DNA of 8,160 bases, taken from positions 1 to 8,160 of IMG/VR virus record IMGVR_UViG_2693429621_000002. The stretch is one strand, 5' to 3'. The notes under the pieces are model-generated. The model was not told the DNA's origin. It saw only the letters and a list, made by a program, of their open reading frames with translations, and searched no databases. Shown here piece after piece: positions 871-8,160 of the stretch. The stretch comes from a virus. Its lineage: Duplodnaviria > Heunggongvirae > Uroviricota > Caudoviricetes. Every line of letters begins with the position of its first letter. Positions within the stretch are counted from its first letter, which is position 1. A program made the translations under genes and the position numbers.

Positions 871-1046
871 TGCAGCGGGTGCTTGAGGCTATCTGTCTCA
901 GGCATGAACACCAAAAGGCAGATAGAGAAAAGCCCCAGTTAACATTACGCGTCCGGCAAGACGCTTAACATTAATCTGAGGCTCAATCTATGAACGGCAA
1001 ATCTAGGTTAGCCTCTTACGTGCCGAAAGGCAAGGAGAAGCAGGCT

Positions 1047-1202
1047 ATGAAGCAGCAAAAGGCGATGTTAATCGCCCTGATCGTCATCTGTTTAACCGTC
1101 ATAGTGACGGCACTGGTAACGAGGAAAGACCTCTGCGAGGTACGAATTCGAACCGGCCAGACGGAGGTCGCTGTCTTCACAGCTTACGAACCTGAGGAGT
1201 AA
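1047..1202 (+). CDS. hokD: Hok/Gef-family type I toxin, HokD/RelF-like (51 aa)
   Basis: Translation MKQQKAMLIALIVICLTVIVTALVTRKDLCEVRIRTGQTEVAVFTAYEPEE matches my recollection of E. coli HokD (RelF). The ORF track shows an in-frame 70-aa extension from ATG 990, which may be a mok-like upstream frame or an ORF-finder artefact. Confidence 0.85.
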   Translation: MKQQKAMLIALIVICLTVIVTALVTRKDLCEVRIRTGQTEVAVFTAYEPEE

Positions 1203-3219: not shown

Positions 3220-4043
3220 AACTGGAAGATTTACCGAAATACTACTCCCCAAAATCCCCCGGCCTGACTGATGCATCGGCCTCAACGTCGAAAGATGCGC
3301 TGAGTATCACTGATGTGATGGCCGCGCAGGGCATGACACAGAATCGGGCTGAGATGGGGGTTTCTGCGTTCCTTGGGAAAATGGGCATTAGTATGAATGA
3401 CAGAGAGCGGGCAACAGAATTGCTGACAGAATATGCACTCAGTCGGTGTGATCGCGTGGCGGCGTTAAGAAAACTCCCGGCAGAAATAAAACCGGCAGTG
3501 ATGCGTATTATGGCTTCGTATGCGTTTGAAGATTATGCCCGTAGCGCGGCGAGCAAAAAACAGTGCCCCTGCTGTCACGGAAAAAAATTTATTGAAAGCG
3601 AGGTTTTTACAAACAAGATCCAGTATCCGGATGGTAAGCCGCCGGTATGGGCAAAGTGTACGAAAGGTGTGTATCCGTCTTACTGGGAAGAATGGAAAAA
3701 AGTCAGGGAGGTGGTAAAAGTTGCCTGTCCGGAGTGTGGCGGAAAGGGTGAGGTTTCCACCGCCTGTAAGGATTGCCGTGGGCGTGGTGTCGCCATTCAT
3801 CGTGAAGAGTCGGTAAAACGTGGTATGCCTGTTATCAGAGACTGCCAGCGTTGTGGTGGTCGTGGCTATGAAAGACTACCATCAACGGAGGCATTTAATG
3901 CTATATGCGAGGTGACAAACCAGATAACACGCGCGTCATGGGAAAAAACAGTTAAGAAATTCTATGATGCGCTGGTGACTCGGTTTGATATTGAAGAAGC
4001 ATGGGCTGAGCGGCAGTTAAAAAAGGTAACTAGGTNAGGTTGA
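3216..4043 (+). CDS. Q-type late antiterminator, QuuQ-like, with zinc-finger motifs (about 274 aa)
   Basis: Repeated CxxC motifs (CPCCHGKKF, CPECGGKG...CKDCRGRG, CQRCGGRG); lies immediately upstream of a promoter plus terminator pair typical of PR'/tR'. The 3' end contains an N at 4036; the duplicate copy shows the true C-terminus ...KKVTR. Confidence 0.7.
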   Translation: MKLEDLPKYYSPKSPGLTDASASTSKDALSITDVMAAQGMTQNRAEMGVSAFLGKMGISMNDRERATELLTEYALSRCDRVAALRKLPAEIKPAVMRIMASYAFEDYARSAASKKQCPCCHGKKFIESEVFTNKIQYPDGKPPVWAKCTKGVYPSYWEEWKKVREVVKVACPECGGKGEVSTACKDCRGRGVAIHREESVKRGMPVIRDCQRCGGRGYERLPSTEAFNAICEVTNQITRASWEKTVKKFYDALVTRFDIEEAWAERQLKKVTRXG

Positions 4044-4128
4044 TTTTTCCGGAATCTGTGGTAAATTCGTCATAACTATGGGCGTTTTATGCCTGACGTT
4101 AGAAGAGTTTCTACAACCCGCCGCCGAG
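3629..4128. repeat. copy 1 of duplicated segment (Q 3' end, PR'-like promoter, start of tR' hairpin) ending at the scaffold gap
   Basis: Matches 4150-4651 except for three substitutions (3962 C/T, 3980 T/C, 4076 T/G) and a small indel around the N at 4036. A copy of the promoter sits at about 4040-4067. Confidence 0.9.
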
Positions 4129-4149
4129 NNNNNNNNNNNNNNNNNNNNN
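4129..4149. other. scaffold gap (21 N)
   Basis: Run of N characters read directly. Confidence 0.97.
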
Positions 4150-4558
4150 GGATGGTAAGCCGCCGGTATGGGCAAAGTGTACGAAAGGTGTGTATCCGTC
4201 TTACTGGGAAGAATGGAAAAAAGTCAGGGAGGTGGTAAAAGTTGCCTGTCCGGAGTGTGGCGGAAAGGGTGAGGTTTCCACCGCCTGTAAGGATTGCCGT
4301 GGGCGTGGTGTCGCCATTCATCGTGAAGAGTCGGTAAAACGTGGTATGCCTGTTATCAGAGACTGCCAGCGTTGTGGTGGTCGTGGCTATGAAAGACTAC
4401 CATCAACGGAGGCATTTAATGCTATATGCGAGGTGACAAACCAGATAACACGCGCGTCATGGGAAAAAACAGTTAAGAAATTTTATGATGCGCTGGTGAC
4501 CCGGTTTGATATTGAAGAAGCATGGGCTGAGCGGCAGTTAAAAAAGGTAACTAGGTAA
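4150..4558 (+). pseudogene. duplicated 3' portion of the Q antiterminator ORF (partial, begins at gap edge); probably contig overlap rather than a separate gene
   Basis: In-frame continuation of Q codons ending ...QLKKVTR-TAA at 4556-4558. The ORF track reports only the part from the internal ATG at 4190. Confidence 0.6.
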
Positions 4559-4563
4559 CAAGG

Positions 4564-4591
4564 TTGATTTTTCCGGAATCTGTGGTAAATT
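4564..4591 (+). promoter_or_regulatory. PR'-like late promoter (-35 TTGATT, 16-bp spacer, -10 TAAATT), presumed Q-utilisation region
   Basis: Hexamers read directly, immediately 3' of the Q gene, with a terminator about 60 nt downstream; this is the lambdoid PR'/qut/tR' arrangement. Confidence 0.55.
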
Positions 4592-4638
4592 CGTCATAAC
4601 GATGGGCGTTTTATGCCTGACGTTAGAAGAGTTTCTAC

Positions 4639-4663
4639 AACCCGCCGCCGAGCGGGTTTTTTA
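4639..4663 (+). terminator. tR'-like rho-independent terminator
   Basis: Hairpin AACCCGC-CGCCGA-GCGGGTT followed by TTTTTTAT. Confidence 0.65.
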
Positions 4664-4782
4664 TGACTGAAATCGCGTCAGTACAGTAAACGCGCTGGTG
4701 GCGGTGAATACCTGTCTTTCAGCTTGCTGGCTTTTTCGACAAGAGTTATTGGTGTGTCACGTTAACCGGAAAAGGAAAAGAC

Positions 4783-4980
4783 ATGCTAAAACAGCAGGAT
4801 ATGACAGAAACCGCCAGAGTGGTGTTTAATGAATTAAGCGTTACCGAACCGGCGACAGTCGGGGAGATAGCGCAGAATACTTACCTTTCACGCGAACGCT
4901 GCCAGTTAATACTGACCCAGCTGGTTATGGCGGGTCTGGCAGACTATCAGTTCGGTTGTTACAGACGCCTTCCGCAGTGA
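4783..4980 (+). CDS. small putative winged-helix/HTH DNA-binding protein (65 aa)
   Basis: SD AAAGGAAAAG 6 nt before ATG; the segment PATVGEIAQNTYLSRERCQLILTQLVMAGLA looks like a helix-turn-helix. An alternative start is ATG 4801. Confidence 0.5.
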   Translation: MLKQQDMTETARVVFNELSVTEPATVGEIAQNTYLSRERCQLILTQLVMAGLADYQFGCYRRLPQ

Positions 4981-4994
4981 AGGCTTTTTTATTT
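4967..4994 (+). terminator. rho-independent terminator overlapping the stop codon of the 4783-4980 ORF
   Basis: Hairpin GCCTTC-CGCAGT-GAAGGC followed by TTTTTTATTT. Confidence 0.5.
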
Positions 4995-5007
4995 GTGGTA
5001 AATGGGC

Positions 5008-5038
5008 GGCTGGTGGGTGTTAGGGGCACCCACCAGCC
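5008..5038 (+). promoter_or_regulatory. perfect 12-bp inverted repeat hairpin (GGCTGGTGGGTG-ttagggg-CACCCACCAGCC) upstream of the methyltransferase gene
   Basis: Read directly; not followed by a T-run. A near-palindrome CTGCTTTGCGCAAAAGCAG lies at 5080-5098, about 35 nt before the methyltransferase start. Confidence 0.4.
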
Positions 5039-5130
5039 ATCTGCTCATGCGTTGGGTTCACAAGCAAACCTCAGGCCCACTGCTTTGCGCAAAAGCAGAA
5101 TGAGCCTATCAGAGACAGGCTTAATGATCC

Positions 5131-6189
5131 ATGCTTAATACTGTAAAAATATCCAGTTGTGAGTTAATCAACGCCGACTGCCTGGAATTTATCCGGTCGT
5201 TACCCGAAAATTCTGTTGACCTGATAGTCACGGACCCGCCGTACTTTAAAGTGAAGCCTGAGGGCTGGGATAACCAGTGGAAGGGCGACGATGATTACCT
5301 GAAGTGGCTGGACCAGTGTCTGGCGCAGTTCTGGCGGGTGCTGAAACCTGCCGGAAGTCTTTACCTGTTCTGTGGTCATCGCCTGGCATCTGATATCGAA
5401 ATCATGATGCGTGAACGCTTCAGTGTGCTGAACCATATTATCTGGGCGAAGCCGTCCGGACGCTGGAACGGATGCAACAAGGAAAGCCTGCGGGCGTATT
5501 TCCCCGCCACAGAGCGCATTCTGTTCGCGGAACATTATCAGGGGCCGTATCGTCCGAAAGATGCCGGGTATGCGGCGAAGGGCAGTGCACTGAAACAGCA
5601 TGTGATGGCCCCGCTGATTTCTTACTTTCGTGATGCGCGAGCTGCCCTGGGGATAACGGCAAAACAGATTGCAGATGCCACAGGAAAGAAAAACATGGTG
5701 TCGCACTGGTTCAGTGCCGGTCAGTGGCAGTTGCCGAATGAAAGCGATTATCTGAAATTACAGGCGCTGTTTGCCCGGGTGGCAGAAGAGAAGCATCGGC
5801 GTGGTGAACTGGAAAAGCTCCACCACCAGCTGGTGGATACGTATACCTCACTGAACCGGCAGTATGCGGAGCTGCTGAGTGAATATAAACATCTGCGGCG
5901 GTATTTTGGCGTGACGGTGCAGGTGCCGTATACCGATGTGTGGACGCATAAACCGGTGCAGTTCTATCCCGGGAAACATCCGTGCGAAAAACCGGCAGAA
6001 ATGCTGCAGCAGATAATCAGCGCTAGCAGTCGTCCGGGTGACCTGATTGCAGATTTTTTCATGGGGTTGGGTTCGACAGTGAAAGCGGCACTGGCGCTCG
6101 GGCGTCGTGCAATTGGCGTTGAGCTGGAGACTGAACGTTTTGAGCAGACGGTTCGGGAAGTACAGGATTTAGTCAGCCAGAACGGATGA
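5131..6189 (+). CDS. beta-class DNA amino-methyltransferase, probably N6-adenine, orphan (352 aa)
   Basis: N-terminal motif IV LIVTDPPYF and C-terminal motif I DFFMGLGST. This order (IV before I) is the beta-class arrangement, and DPPY favours N6-adenine. No restriction endonuclease ORF is adjacent. Confidence 0.85.
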   Translation: MLNTVKISSCELINADCLEFIRSLPENSVDLIVTDPPYFKVKPEGWDNQWKGDDDYLKWLDQCLAQFWRVLKPAGSLYLFCGHRLASDIEIMMRERFSVLNHIIWAKPSGRWNGCNKESLRAYFPATERILFAEHYQGPYRPKDAGYAAKGSALKQHVMAPLISYFRDARAALGITAKQIADATGKKNMVSHWFSAGQWQLPNESDYLKLQALFARVAEEKHRRGELEKLHHQLVDTYTSLNRQYAELLSEYKHLRRYFGVTVQVPYTDVWTHKPVQFYPGKHPCEKPAEMLQQIISASSRPGDLIADFFMGLGSTVKAALALGRRAIGVELETERFEQTVREVQDLVSQNG

Positions 6190-6229
6190 TATTGAAGAAT
6201 TAATTACGCGTCGTTATTATGCGGCTCCC

Positions 6230-6305
6230 GGCCCTTTAGCTCAGTGGTGAGAGCGAGCGACTCATAATCGCCAGGTCGCTGGTTCAAATCCAGCAAGGGC
6301 CACCA
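6230..6305 (+). tRNA. ileZ: tRNA-Ile2 (anticodon CAU, lysidine type; ileX/ileZ-like), 76 nt with encoded CCA
   Basis: Manual cloverleaf: acceptor GGCCCTT/AAGGGCC, D-arm GCTC-AGTGGTGA-GAGC, anticodon loop CTCATAA, T-loop TTCAAAT. Closely resembles my recollection of E. coli ileX. Confidence 0.85.
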
Positions 6306-6312
6306 TCACATA

Positions 6313-6389
6313 CCGCCATTAGCTCATCAGGAAAGAGCGCCAGCCTTCGAAGCTGGCTGCGCGGGGTTCAAGTCCCCGATGGCGGTCCA
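6313..6389 (+). tRNA. argN: tRNA-Arg (anticodon UCG), 77 nt with encoded CCA
   Basis: Acceptor CCGCCAT/ATGGCGG, anticodon stem CCAGC/GCTGG, loop CTTCGAA, T-arm CGGGG-TTCAAGT-CCCCG, discriminator T, CCA. Confidence 0.8.
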
Positions 6390-6402
6390 TTATCTGCATC
6401 AT

Positions 6403-6479
6403 GCGTTGTTAGCTCAGCCGGACAGAGCAATTGCCTTCTAAGCAATCGGTCACTGGTTCGAATCCAGTACAGCGCGCCA
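6403..6479 (+). tRNA. argO: tRNA-Arg (anticodon UCU), 77 nt with encoded CCA
   Basis: Acceptor GCGTTGT/ACAGCGC (one G-U pair), anticodon stem ATTGC/GCAAT, loop CTTCTAA, T-loop TTCGAAT, discriminator G, CCA. Confidence 0.85.
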
Positions 6480-6616
6480 TATTCATTCTTCCAGATTCCT
6501 TCCGGCAGAGCCTTATACTGAAATATACCTGGCTCAGGATATTGTTGAAAATATTTTATGTTTGTCAAAAATAAAAGTTCTGTTAAGTATTGATTGAGTG
6601 TTTGTTATACGGTCTA

Positions 6617-6943
6617 ATGGTTTTTTCAGCATTAAATATTTATCATTCATATGGTGTGGGTAGAGTGAATATTGATGAGGCGTCGGGGTGTTTCATCCTT
6701 AGGCAGCGTATTGATATAGTCAATGCAGCACGAGCAAAGGCCTTCAGCCGTTTGACAGTTTTGTTCTGTACTCCTGATCGTCTTTCGGGAAGAGACGTTA
6801 TTATTCTGAATAGTGATGCTATACAGAGGGTTTGCGATGAGTTCATGGTTGCTAATTCAGAATTATTTGCTCTTGTTCAGGAGTACAACAGAATAGCCAG
6901 GACCTGTGGTATGGATGAACTTCGGATTACTCATCTGGGGTAG
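6617..6943 (+). CDS. hypothetical cargo protein (108 aa from first ATG; ORF track extends to TTG at 6590)
   Basis: Open frame of more than 100 codons in an AT-rich region; no clear SD. Arg codons are 6/11 AGA/AGG plus one CGA, and Ile includes 3 ATA, matching the adjacent tRNAs. No recognisable domain. Confidence 0.4.
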   Translation: MVFSALNIYHSYGVGRVNIDEASGCFILRQRIDIVNAARAKAFSRLTVLFCTPDRLSGRDVIILNSDAIQRVCDEFMVANSELFALVQEYNRIARTCGMDELRITHLG

Positions 6944-7023
6944 ATACATATCTGGATTATCACCTGTTACGGTAAAAAGTGATTGCTTACTGTTTTTGTG
7001 AATGGCATTGCAGCAGCCGGATA

Positions 7024-7110
7024 ATGTCAGTGCTGGCTGACGGTGTGCTGGTGGCGGGTGTGGTGGTTGTTGCTTTCCCGTTGCTGAAAAAGAAAACGCC
7101 AGACTGTTAG
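7024..7110 (+). CDS. possible 28-aa hydrophobic micro-protein (MSVLADGVLVAGVVVVAFPLLKKKTPDC)
   Basis: ATG with weak SD (GGA); one hydrophobic helix followed by KKK. Speculative; may be non-coding. Confidence 0.2.
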   Translation: MSVLADGVLVAGVVVVAFPLLKKKTPDC

Positions 7111-7335
7111 CCGGGTATCAGTTAGCGGGAGAAATTTTTAAATACTTCACAATTCAGGCGGTTGACTGTTGTCTGGTTTGCGGGGAGTTTGTTAAAAGAA
7201 ACTGGCATGGTGAATCCCCCTGTGCGGAGGGGCAATCAGCGAGTAGGTATATGGGATAATCGCGGATTCAGGTGCTGGTACTGAATTCACCGGGAGGCAC
7301 CCGGCACCATGCAATGGCACATAGCGCCACTCTCC

Positions 7336-7370
7336 AGCCCCTCTCCGGAGGGGCTGTTTATATTGATTTT
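7336..7370 (+). terminator. strong rho-independent terminator, + orientation
   Basis: Perfect 8-bp stem AGCCCCTC-tccg-GAGGGGCT followed by GTTTATATTGATTTT. Confidence 0.6.
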
Positions 7371-7387
7371 GTCAGATGTGAGTAAAC

Positions 7388-7421
7388 TCCTTATGGACTT
7401 TGTTGTTTTAGTCCATAAGGA
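7388..7421. promoter_or_regulatory. perfect 12-bp inverted repeat (TCCTTATGGACT-ttgttgtttt-AGTCCATAAGGA) overlapping the stop codon of the minus-strand ORF
   Basis: Read directly; on the minus-strand mRNA the last 10 codons and the stop lie inside this hairpin. Confidence 0.4.
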
Positions 7422-7726
7422 CATATTTGCAGAGTGCAACGGTTATTAAAGCATTCATTCAATACGTTATCTGTATTTGTAGGGCATTCCTGGCTATTTT
7501 TGATTGAATTCCAGAATGTTTTATTGAATGGTACTACGTTGTAAATGGTTACAGGTAGCACTTTGTTATTGAGCATGATGCCTGTGTGAGTCAGTGTAAA
7601 TATACTTTCAGGAGGTAAGAAAGCATCCGATTGATACCAGATTATTAATTTTATTTTACTCCATATGACTGAAAAAGATATTCCGCATGATGGCTGGATA
7701 ACTGTATCAATCACAATCCACTTCAT
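7391..7726 (-). CDS. hypothetical cargo protein (111 aa), antisense to the phage late operon, Cys-containing C-terminus
   Basis: ATG at 7726 with SD AAGGA 7 nt upstream; 6 of 13 Ile codons are the rare ATA (read by the adjacent tRNA-Ile2). C-terminal [25 protein letters not shown] has four Cys. No recognisable domain. Confidence 0.6.
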
Positions 7727-7986
7727 TTAGTTTCCTTGTTTATGCCTTGCTGGTGATGTTCTGAAAAGTATAAATGATATTTTTGAATGTAAACCATAGA
7801 GCAGAATTATTTTTCTGATGTTGTTTATTGTTTATTTAAATGCAGGGTGGTTTATATCTCGTCTTGTAGTTTATCCATGCATATCTGCTTGATAATCAGG
7901 TTTTTATTTAAGGTATGGTTTTGTGTTTTTTCTGTATTACATGTCAGGTATTTTAAAGAATTATTTTTCAGATGGTGGAAAGAACC

Positions 7987-8160
7987 ATGGCATTTAAACA
8001 CTATGATGTTGTCAGGGCGGCGCCGCCGTCAGATCTTGCGGAAAAGCTGACACATAAACTGAAAGAGGGCTGGCAGCCGTTTGGTAGTCCGGTGGCCATA
8101 ACCCCTTATACCCTGAGGTGTACTGGCAATAGCGGACACTACCATTTGTTCTTTTTTTAA
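7987..8160 (+). CDS. small prophage protein (57 aa from ATG 7987; 62 aa from ATG 7972), tentatively DUF1737-like
   Basis: SD-like GGTGGAAAG before ATG 7987; stop TAA at 8158-8160 directly after a T7 homopolymer at the window edge. Similarity to the N-terminal domain of Stx-phage NanS-p-type esterases is from memory and unverified. Confidence 0.45.
   Translation: MAFKHYDVVRAAPPSDLAEKLTHKLKEGWQPFGSPVAITPYTLRCTGNSGHYHLFFF

Follow-up and report, generated by a model that had tools for sequence, protein, structure and literature searches.

The tRNA genes of phages compensate for the differences in codon usage between phage and host, according to Bailly-Bechet, Vergassola, and Rocha (2007), in the form in which that work is cited in PMC7946995. 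In SfI, Sf6, ST64T, and P21, tRNA-Thr(UGU)/Asn genes are located downstream of Q and match an ACA bias (PMC3636060). McDonald et al. (2015; PMC4539685) ascribed the argO tRNA to phages and gave its identity to argU as about 75%, and its copy number correlates with the use of AGA in the laterally acquired genes of O157. In Sp5, a transcription start has been published upstream of the tRNAs (PMC7547250). Furthermore, morons are autonomous insertions made up of a promoter, a gene, and a terminator, found downstream of pR′, as described by Juhala et al. (2000; cited in PMC4104026). The ileZ-argN-argO cassette, its specificity for rare codons, and the idea that it supports stx or other acquired genes have long been in the literature, and PGAP annotates it routinely; finding it once more has little discovery value. 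A literature search on the gene names ileZ, argN, and argO retrieved nothing relevant, and no experimental deletion test of the tRNAs was found in the literature search.

In the present work, we analyzed a stretch of 8,160 nucleotides (hereinafter, the window) harboring three tRNA genes, for which an earlier note had proposed a role in the expression of the cargo ORFs immediately downstream. The features considered are the following:

4564-4591, plus strand: late promoter pR′-like element (TTGATT, 16-nt spacer, TAAATT), a putative promoter assigned from position and homology
4639-4664, plus strand: tR′ terminator, 3′ of the Q antiterminator gene (terminator scan)
5131..6189, plus strand: DNA N6/N4 methyltransferase gene (Pfam PF01555, E=7.9e-42; PGAP annotation of the orthologue)
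6079..6487, plus strand: conserved mobile block comprising the 3′ end of the DNA methyltransferase gene (~110 nt), the promoter-like element, and the tRNA trio (homology)
6192..6220, plus strand: promoter-like element (TTGAAG, 17-nt spacer, TATTAT), its 3′ end lying 9 nt from ileZ (consensus scan)
6230..6305, plus strand: ileZ, tRNA-Ile2 type, anticodon CAU, CCA encoded (ARAGORN, Rfam, PGAP orthologue)
6313..6389, plus strand: argN, tRNA-Arg, anticodon UCG (ARAGORN, Rfam)
6403..6479, plus strand: argO, tRNA-Arg, anticodon UCU (ARAGORN, Rfam)
6617..6943, plus strand: orf108, cargo gene, with a conserved core at 6665-6943 (PHROG 2873, E=3.8e-70)
6979..7110, plus strand: DUF3927/TciB-like small membrane protein of 43 aa (Pfam PF13064, E=1.7e-27; PHROG 1470)
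7176..7365, plus strand: STnc100-family sRNA with a terminator hairpin at 7335-7356 (Rfam RF02076, 132 bits; terminator scan)
7391..7726, minus strand: IraM-family anti-adaptor gene (NCBIfam NF007393, E=4.7e-48)

The order of the genes in the window is Q, the pR′-like element and tR′, orf65, the methyltransferase gene, the tRNAs, and then DUF1737; the orthologous O104:H4 prophage runs on into the holin and lysozyme genes. The trio is thus placed in the late region, downstream of Q and pR′-tR′ and upstream of the lysis cassette. In other loci, an identical pR′-tR′ sequence directly adjoins the tRNA cassette.

The three tRNAs reported in the earlier note were all called by ARAGORN at the positions listed above (as CAT, TCG, and TCT), and the covariance-model check that it had recommended bore them out, since Rfam RF00005 gave 72.5 bits for ileZ, 58 for argN, and 68 for argO, with a gathering score of 29. 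The genes are separated by spacers of 7 and 13 nt. Among the K-12 genes, ileZ shares 89.5% identity with ileX and 67.5% with metT; its anticodon loop (CTCATAA) is the same as that of ileX, and its acceptor stem (GGCCCTT/AAGGGCC) harbors the pairs C4-G69 and C5-G68, which are TilS determinants. Judging from these features, ileZ has an Ile2-type body and not a Met body. The decoding of AUA would presuppose the conversion of C34 to lysidine, and both this modification and the charging with Ile are predicted. The PGAP label of the ileZ orthologue is tRNA-Ile; as a point of annotation, ARAGORN-type tools wrongly label ileZ as tRNA-Met.

The argN gene harbors A20 and C35, with U as the discriminator, and differs by two D-loop substitutions from the O104:H4 and Stx2a copies. 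Its UCG anticodon is expected to read CGA/CGG, this range being a prediction. The anticodons of the K-12 Arg tRNA genes examined are ACG and UCU, and UCG is absent among them; to our knowledge, the whole K-12 genome lacks any UCG isoacceptor. As regards argO, its identity to K-12 argU is 74%, the anticodon loop (CTTCTAA) being the same, and its UCU anticodon is predicted to read AGA and, via wobble, AGG; a modification of U34 is predicted for both argN and argO. The anticodons would therefore assign to the trio the codons already named in the earlier note, i.e., ATA, CGA, CGG, AGA, and AGG (hereinafter, the trio codons). That these are rare in E. coli also held: in a host sample of 15.9k codons, no sense codon is rarer than AGG, AGA, ATA, and CGA, and CGG shares ranks 7 to 9.

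According to these data and to the comparison with phage genomes, the trio is the already known ileZ-argN-argO cluster of lambdoid/Stx prophages. The block 6079..6487 shares 91.9% identity over 409 nt with the Stx2a phage WGPS8 (NC_049944), whose annotation names the matching genes ileZ/argN/argO, and likewise 91.9% over 409 nt with the stx-negative phage phi296; in both cases, the homology stops 8 nt past argO. The tRNA cluster is matched by 365 phage records and occurs in about half of the complete E. coli genomes (2578 of 5426), with a maximum of 13 copies per genome.

The promoter-like element matches 9 of 12 consensus positions, and its promoter activity in the window is putative. The identical -35/17/-10 arrangement, at an identical distance from ileZ, occurs in 94 out of 101 loci, and the other seven (7/101) carry TTGATT-17-TATTAT within upstream sequence that is not homologous, so that a promoter-like element at a fixed distance from ileZ is present in 101/101 loci, embedded in three unrelated left contexts. 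At the other end of the cassette, a canonical intrinsic terminator follows argO in 85 of the 88 loci that are not of the orf108 type, whereas it is missing in 30 out of 30 orf108-type loci (vs. 3/88 elsewhere); in the window, the terminator scan retrieved none after argO, and the fold had z=-0.24. The sequence break is located 8 nt past argO only in orf108-type loci and past the terminator elsewhere. A site-specific insertion of the cargo at the 3′ end of argO was considered and rejected, the 8-nt break being limited to the orf108-type loci. As far as the compared loci can tell, the cassette acts as a self-standing unit that has a promoter-like element at one end and a terminator at the other, the latter being lost specifically in the orf108-type loci; it is constant and self-contained, and its left and right neighbors vary freely.

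The cargo gene orf108 probably has, on the alignment of its homologs, a conserved core of 92 aa starting from GTG 6665 (orf92): the homologs are 57-60% identical, and their starts align with this codon. A TTG start at 6590, corresponding to a 117-aa ORF, was rejected, since the PHROG profile begins at residue 10 and the diverged homologs at GTG 6665. The AlphaFold2 model of orf108/orf92 is a two-helix hairpin (pLDDT 84.7), for which a Foldseek search against the PDB gave a generic coiled coil as the best match (E 0.2) and none at E<0.2. The Pfam and NCBIfam profile searches did not retrieve any match, and PHROG 2873 is without an assigned function. The homologs, all hypothetical, occur only in E. 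coli and Shigella, and only one isolated phage carries the gene, which has no PGAP annotation in O104:H4. For annotation purposes, orf92/orf108 is a conserved yet often unannotated gene.

Past orf108, DUF3927 comes second among the plus-strand ORFs that follow the tRNAs, and the STnc100 hairpin is the first strong plus-strand terminator. On its right, the cargo slot is bordered by the conserved STnc100 block, which follows it in 97 of 120 argO loci; a permissive Rfam scan of 6100-8160 for AgvB/AsxR-type anti-sRNAs gave only STnc100 and the tRNAs. The IraM-like protein is 61% identical to K-12 IraM, and its gene forms a cassette of its own, on the opposite strand, which occurs across loci independently of orf108.

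The codon statistics recommended in the earlier note, which had described the cargo ORFs as enriched for exactly the trio codons, gave a mixed picture. In orf108, 11 of 108 codons are trio codons (10.2%; 10/92 in the 92-aa core), the corresponding shares being 4.0% in the window neighbors (Fisher p=0.007), 3.4% in the related prophage (p=0.001), and 1.3% for the host. Six AGA/AGG and three ATA make up the excess, and CGA/CGG (2/108) are not enriched. The IraM-like gene has six ATA in 111 codons, no rare Arg codon (CGA/CGG 0/111), and a single Arg, while DUF3927 has 2/43 trio codons, which is not significant. The enrichment thus stands for AGA/AGG/ATA in orf108 and for ATA only in the IraM-like gene, and not for CGA/CGG or DUF3927. 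The word "exactly" has to be dropped: in the cargo ORFs, ACA, CCT, TCA, GTT, CTT, GTA, and CTA show a comparable over-use, and the observed counts are those expected from neutral base composition (11 vs. 11.3 for orf108 and 6 vs. 6.3 for the IraM-like gene). The AT-richness of the cargo and its lack of codon adaptation would explain its abundance of some trio codons.

The match holds for the prophage as a whole. Ranking the 61 codons by prophage/host over-use, AGG is 1st, AGA 2nd, CGG 3rd, ATA 5th, and CGA 14th (permutation p=5e-6), ACA being the sole non-trio codon in the top five. The late genes harbor 276 trio codons and the early genes 110 (386), vs. 19 in the three adjacent genes (orf108 11, IraM-like 6, DUF3927 2). 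Their frequency is 3.4% in the prophage (3.2% in the head/tail genes) vs. 1.29% in the host. Phage lambda, which has no tRNA genes, reaches 3.97% overall, with 2.9% in the head/tail genes, 10.1% in int, and 13.9% in xis; in this single comparison (3.97% vs. 3.4%), the possession of the tRNAs is not accompanied by a higher use of the trio codons. Therefore, the supplement is not required, and the codon usage has not visibly co-evolved with the trio. Moreover, the most highly expressed structural genes still avoid the trio codons (0.6% in the major capsid gene and 0.9% in the decoration protein gene), and the tRNAs therefore do not neutralize the codon cost.

We consider it likely that the cassette is a general and dispensable translational supplement, matched to the lambdoid phages and not to the adjacent ORFs. 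It would be a small portable transcription unit of the late region, lying after the Q antiterminator and before the lysis genes, which appears to own a sigma-70-type promoter and, in most phages, an intrinsic terminator. The trio would supply tRNA-Ile2(CAU), tRNA-Arg(UCG), and tRNA-Arg(UCU) for the rarest codons of the host, AUA, CGA/CGG, and AGA/AGG, raising the tRNA supply where lambdoid genes and acquired AT-rich lysogen genes create an excess demand. Its putative effect on translation would be exerted in trans on all such genes and not specifically on the adjacent ORFs, and orf92/orf108, DUF3927, and the IraM-like gene would have been inserted independently into the moron hot-spot beside it. 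The position of CGA, only 14th for over-use, speaks against the supplement model, and so does the decay of argN and argO in at least one phage, 640R1, a hint of weak selection in some lineages.

The proposal of the earlier note, i.e., a trio dedicated to the adjacent cargo and kept beside rare-codon-rich morons (stx, orf108, iraM-like) whose expression depends on it, appears improbable. It mirrors, as that note said, an old idea about stx: stx2A has 8.8% trio codons, though stx2B has none. The stx/rare-codon proposal is said to go back to Plunkett et al. 1999. The loads of orf108 and stx2A exceed the phage mean of 3.4%, and, given the amino acid content, the synonymous usage of orf108 (p=0.014) and of the IraM-like gene (p=0.007) lies above the phage-typical one; on the other hand, the non-trio codons are equally over-used, the counts correspond to the neutral composition expectation, CGA/CGG are enriched in neither cargo ORF, and the IraM-like gene, with its single Arg, lies on the opposite strand and occurs independently of orf108. 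Similar loads are found where the trio is absent, not only in lambda: K-12 iraM, which has no phage trio in its vicinity, counts 8 ATA among its 107 codons, and an orf92 homolog in a trio-less prophage segment has 6/92 trio codons. Among the 120 argO loci compared, 97 have a definable slot, which is empty after argO in 45 (46%) and elsewhere contains stx2, TciA-like genes, or orf108. The trio-codon load of the slot genes ranges from 0 to 10.9%, with low values in stx2B (0%), a 74-aa ORF (0%), the TciA-like genes (2-3%), and a methyltransferase-like ORF (4.2%), and no general co-occurrence of the trio with a rare-codon-rich cargo emerged across genomes. One point in favor of a link is the terminator: since it is missing in all the orf108-type loci, the tRNAs and orf92 may belong to a single transcript. 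In these loci only, the cargo might have replaced the cassette terminator, and the putative tRNA promoter could give rise to a single constitutive transcript (ileZ-argN-argO-orf92-DUF3927-STnc100) that stops at the sRNA terminator (7335-7356). In it, a rare-codon-rich moron would be fused, both physically and in transcription, to its decoding tRNAs, from which RNase P/RNase E processing would free it. We regard such a co-transcript as possible, though rather doubtful; if true, it would represent a local and secondarily evolved version of the proposal made in the earlier note.

The cassette might also be a nearly neutral legacy, persisting in a recombination-rich and insertion-tolerant region and travelling with the neighboring modules. 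In agreement with this, lambda handles the same codon load without tRNAs, the flanks are mosaic, phage 640R1 has decayed argN and argO with an intact ileZ, and partial clusters with only one annotated Arg tRNA, or with a Lys tRNA, occur in other genomes. Such hitch-hiking is nonetheless unlikely, given that tRNAs, promoter-like element, and terminator are conserved over three unrelated left and many right contexts, that argO copy number correlates with AGA use (PMC4539685), and that the five codons are the most phage-over-used, host-rare ones (p=5e-6). These same points fit the general supplement favored here. In principle, phage tRNAs could instead stand in for host tRNAs that anticodon nucleases or toxins cleave or deplete in the course of an infection. 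Phage tRNAs that escape tRNA-targeting defenses have been reported, and colicin D is an example of a tRNase targeting Arg tRNAs. This general precedent is what favors counter-defense, nothing in the window pointing to it, whereas the anticodon loops of ileZ and argO equal those of host ileX and argU, with no obvious escape changes at nuclease sites, and the choice of rare-codon isoacceptors fits codon supply better; we deem it very unlikely.

The general supplement corrects the previous interpretation: the cassette matches the codon usage of the lambdoid phages as a whole, and the apparent match between tRNAs and cargo would be a by-product of AT-rich, non-adapted cargo placed beside a ubiquitous cassette in a moron hot-spot.

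The closest described systems are the clusters of WGPS8 and of the 933W/Sp5-type Stx phages, which share with the window the anticodons, order, strand, spacers, and promoter-like element; as in the window, the Stx/lambdoid cluster lies between Q/pR′ and the lysis genes. They differ in what follows the cluster, that is, orf92/orf108 and DUF3927 in the window and stx in the Stx phages, in the two D-loop substitutions of the window argN, unlike the Stx2a copy, and in what precedes it, since the methyltransferase gene and orf65 separate pR′-tR′ from the tRNAs in the window, whereas the cassette abuts tR′ in some phages. Compared with the host genes, ileZ and argO have the same anticodon loops as ileX/ileY (CAU) and argU (UCU), respectively, the window tRNAs being phage-borne extra copies, while none of the examined Arg tRNA genes of K-12 corresponds to the UCG tRNA argN. 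The cassette resembles the lambdoid morons in having its own promoter-like element and, in 85/88 of the other loci, its own terminator, and in sitting in a recognized moron hot-spot with flanking sRNA genes; unlike them, its products are tRNAs and not a protein, and the terminator is absent in the window. Finally, like the codon-compensating phage tRNAs, the trio has the same post-Q location and corresponds to codons commoner in the phage than in the host, but the trio-less lambda has the same bias, which implies that compensation is optional and not co-evolved.

The window corresponds to the late-regulatory region of a lambdoid prophage without stx; its positions 4600-8116 share 97.6% identity with a prophage of E. 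coli O104:H4 2011C-3493. Its genes run in the order hok/sok, DUF968, RusA, Q, a pR'-like promoter, tR', orf65, a DNA methyltransferase, three tRNAs, orf108, DUF3927, an STnc100-family sRNA, an IraM-family gene and a DUF1737/NanS-p N-terminus.

Features of the window
877-1202, plus strand: hok/sok type I toxin-antitoxin module (sok RNA RF01794 and Hok-like ORF)
4564-4664: pR'-like promoter and tR'
5131-6189: DNA methyltransferase
6192-6220: promoter-like element
6230-6305, plus strand: ileZ tRNA, anticodon CAT (ARAGORN; Rfam tRNA covariance model, 72.5 bits)
6313-6389, plus strand: argN tRNA, anticodon TCG (ARAGORN; Rfam, 58 bits, the lowest of the three)
6403-6479, plus strand: argO tRNA, anticodon TCT (ARAGORN; Rfam, 68 bits)
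6665-6943, plus strand: 92-residue conserved core of orf108 (orf92), GTG start at 6665
6979-7110: DUF3927, TciB-like small membrane protein
7176-7365, plus strand: STnc100-family sRNA (Rfam STnc100, 132 bits)
7391-7726, minus strand: IraM-family anti-adaptor gene

The sok RNA RF01794 (877-1052, 112 bits) overlaps the Hok-like ORF (990-1202), whose O104:H4 orthologue is annotated as hokD. Within 3629-4652, two direct repeats flank a single N (4036) and an N-run (4129-4149): one of 300 nt with exact copies (3629-3928 and 4150-4449) and one of 92 nt (4037-4128 and 4561-4652, 99% identity); this arrangement looks like a scaffolding or assembly artefact duplicating the 3' part of Q and pR'-tR', rather than biology. 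At the right end, the DUF1737 ORF (7972-8160) tracks the N-terminus of the NanS-p esterase as far as 8116, beyond which it departs from it and terminates where the window ends (...RCTGNSGHYHLFFF*); the divergent stretch 8117-8160 could reflect truncation, insertion or the joining of contigs.

The three tRNA genes proposed in the earlier note are present at the coordinates given there, since both ARAGORN and the Rfam model call all of them, with scores well above the gathering score of 29 bits; CCA is encoded in each. ARAGORN labels the CAU tRNA as Met; it is nevertheless of the Ile2 type. Its identity reaches 89.5% with ileX of E. coli K-12 vs. 67.5% with the elongator metT/metU, it shares the anticodon loop of ileX, and it retains the acceptor-stem pairs C4-G69 and C5-G68, which are TilS determinants. 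Its O104:H4 orthologue is named tRNA-Ile by PGAP. The UCU tRNA is 74% identical to K-12 argU, with an identical anticodon loop; the K-12 Arg genes compared have the anticodons ACG (argQ) and UCU (argU), so that the UCG tRNA lacks a counterpart among them. Both Arg tRNAs possess A20 and C35. The argN of the window differs at two D-loop positions from the O104:H4 and Stx2a copies (TCATCAGGAAAGAGC vs. TCATCGGGATAGAGC), G18 and G19 being kept.

It is close to certain that these genes represent the well-known ileZ-argN-argO cassette. Over 6079-6487, identity reaches 91.9% with the Stx2a phage WGPS8, whose annotation gives the genes these names and places them upstream of stx2AB, and is just as high with the stx-negative phage phi296. 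The cassette region is matched by 365 phage records, and a copy (at least 80% coverage of the 296-nt cassette) was found in 2578 out of 5426 complete E. coli genomes, in up to 13 places per genome. Variant clusters (Ile plus one Arg, or Ile plus Lys) occur in other E. coli genomes, and phage vB_EcoS-640R1 (3117-3300) shows a natural partial decay, with ileZ intact and argN and argO reduced to unrecognisable remnants.

The analysis of 120 viral contigs harboring an exact 41-mer of argO indicated that the cassette behaves as a portable and probably autonomous unit. Three unrelated left contexts (the 3' end of the methyltransferase gene or of an AraC-family gene, or the pR'-tR' terminator directly) all lead into a promoter-like element that stops 9 nt short of ileZ. 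In 94 out of 101 loci this element reads TTGCAG/TTGCGG/TTGAAG, 17 nt, TATTAT, and in seven loci of the AraC context TTGATT-17-TATTAT, within non-homologous surroundings. A canonical intrinsic terminator (GGCTCGC-TTTT-GCGGGCC plus a T-run; fold z = -3.7) follows argO in 85 of the 88 loci outside the orf108-type; it is missing in all 30 orf108-type loci, including the window, whose sequence 3' of argO shows no folding beyond that of shuffled versions (z = -0.24).

The cargo slot lies between the cassette and a conserved STnc100 block of about 200 nt, which is its right flank in 97 of the 120 loci. Among the 97 loci where the slot is definable, it is essentially empty (100 nt or less) in 45, and holds orf108 and DUF3927 in 27, stx2AB in five, and other content in 20 (a TciA/TerB-like gene with TciB, a pair of small ORFs, or a methyltransferase-like ORF). 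The IraM-like gene was inserted separately, on the right-hand side of the sRNA, and occurs independently of orf108. The position of the STnc100 block coincides with that of the convergent prophage sRNAs described 3' of stx2B (Tree et al. 2014, PMC4104026).

The earlier note held that the codons read by the trio (ATA, CGA/CGG and AGA/AGG) are rare in E. coli, and that the downstream cargo ORFs are enriched for exactly these codons, and suggested that the tRNAs support their expression. Rarity was borne out: in the host reference (O104:H4 chromosomal genes, 15.9k codons), no sense codon is rarer than AGG, AGA, ATA and CGA, and CGG ranks joint 7th-9th. For comparison, a related prophage set was used (45 CDS, 11.4k codons, leaving out IraM and DUF3927).

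Frequency of trio codons
Host genes: 1.29%
Related prophage: 3.4%
Other window genes: 4.0%
orf108: 11/108 (10.2%); conserved core, 10/92
IraM-like: 6/111 (5.4%)
DUF3927: 2/43

Trio codons observed, and expected given the amino acid sequence of each gene
orf108: 11 observed; host 2.6, phage 6.0 (p = 0.014), neutral 11.3
IraM-like: 6 observed; host 0.9, phage 2.0 (p = 0.007), neutral 6.3
stx2A: 28 observed; host 5.6, phage 12.9, neutral 24.1

In orf108 the excess is borne out in both comparisons, with p = 0.001 for the prophage and Fisher p = 0.007 for the neighbouring genes of the window. The IraM-like gene, which has one Arg, shows no overall excess against either (p = 0.18 and p = 0.31, respectively), only ATA being in excess (p = 4e-5), and CGA/CGG are enriched in neither gene. 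By the yardstick that the earlier note had set, a difference between the cargo and adjacent phage genes does exist, albeit a modest one that is limited to three of the five codons; ordinary phage genes reach similarly high values (Z 9.9%, DUF977 7.8%, hokD 7.8%, W 7.4%, RusA 7.3%). The codon claim of the earlier note is confirmed in part, for AGA, AGG and ATA but not for CGA/CGG, and ACA, CCT, TCA, GTT, CTT, GTA and CTA are over-used to a similar degree in the same genes. Since the counts of orf108 and the IraM-like gene also meet the neutral expectation, based on the base composition of each gene, the match is a signature of AT-rich genes without codon adaptation, not a trio-specific enrichment.

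Concerning the role of the cassette, phage lambda, with no tRNA gene anywhere in its genome, has an overall trio-codon share of 3.97% (int 10.1%, xis 13.9%, head/tail genes 2.9%), not less than the trio-bearing prophage (3.4% overall, 3.2% head/tail); this implies that a high use of these codons is a general lambdoid trait. The chromosomal iraM of K-12, a strain not known to carry a phage trio, encodes a protein 61% identical to the IraM-like one and has eight ATA in 107 codons, with no Arg. Diverged orf92 homologues (57-60% identity) follow an AraC-family gene in prophage segments devoid of the trio; one of them, in a Q-PemK-methyltransferase-AraC segment without tRNA, still has 6/92 trio codons. 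The most highly expressed capsid genes avoid these codons (0.6-0.9%). These data, together with the decay in 640R1, suggest that the cassette is best seen as a dispensable, trans-acting supplement, required by no particular neighbour.

A local link would find its basis in the terminator: as that of argO is absent only in orf108-type loci, and the first strong plus-strand terminator 3' of the tRNAs is the hairpin and T-run ending the STnc100 match (7335-7356), a transcript from the putative tRNA promoter could there run through orf92 and DUF3927. We consider this rather unlikely; if true, it would amount to a modest coupling restricted to this type of locus, much as the earlier note imagined. 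The orf108 product matches PHROG 2873, a family of unknown function, and was not called by PGAP in O104:H4; orf92/orf108 occurs solely in prophages of E. coli and Shigella, and its predicted fold, a two-helix hairpin (pLDDT 84.7), retrieved no informative structural or family match. A general, rather than cargo-specific, supplement is the role that we favor as probable, the interpretation of the earlier note being a known hypothesis applied too specifically.

Ranking the 61 sense codons by prophage/host frequency placed AGG 1st (15-fold), AGA 2nd, CGG 3rd, ATA 5th and CGA 14th (rank-sum permutation test, p = 5e-6). Late structural and lysis genes contain 276 trio codons and early genes 110, the three genes adjoining the trio accounting for 19 (orf108 11, IraM-like 6, DUF3927 2). 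This phage-wide match fits both the general rule, cited in PMC7946995, that phage tRNAs correspond to codons commoner in the phage than in the host, and the finding that, in O157, the number of argO copies correlates with how often laterally acquired genes use AGA (PMC4539685). The sole non-trio codon among the top five is ACA, and a tRNA-Thr(UGU) occupies the same post-Q position in other lambdoid phages (PMC3636060).
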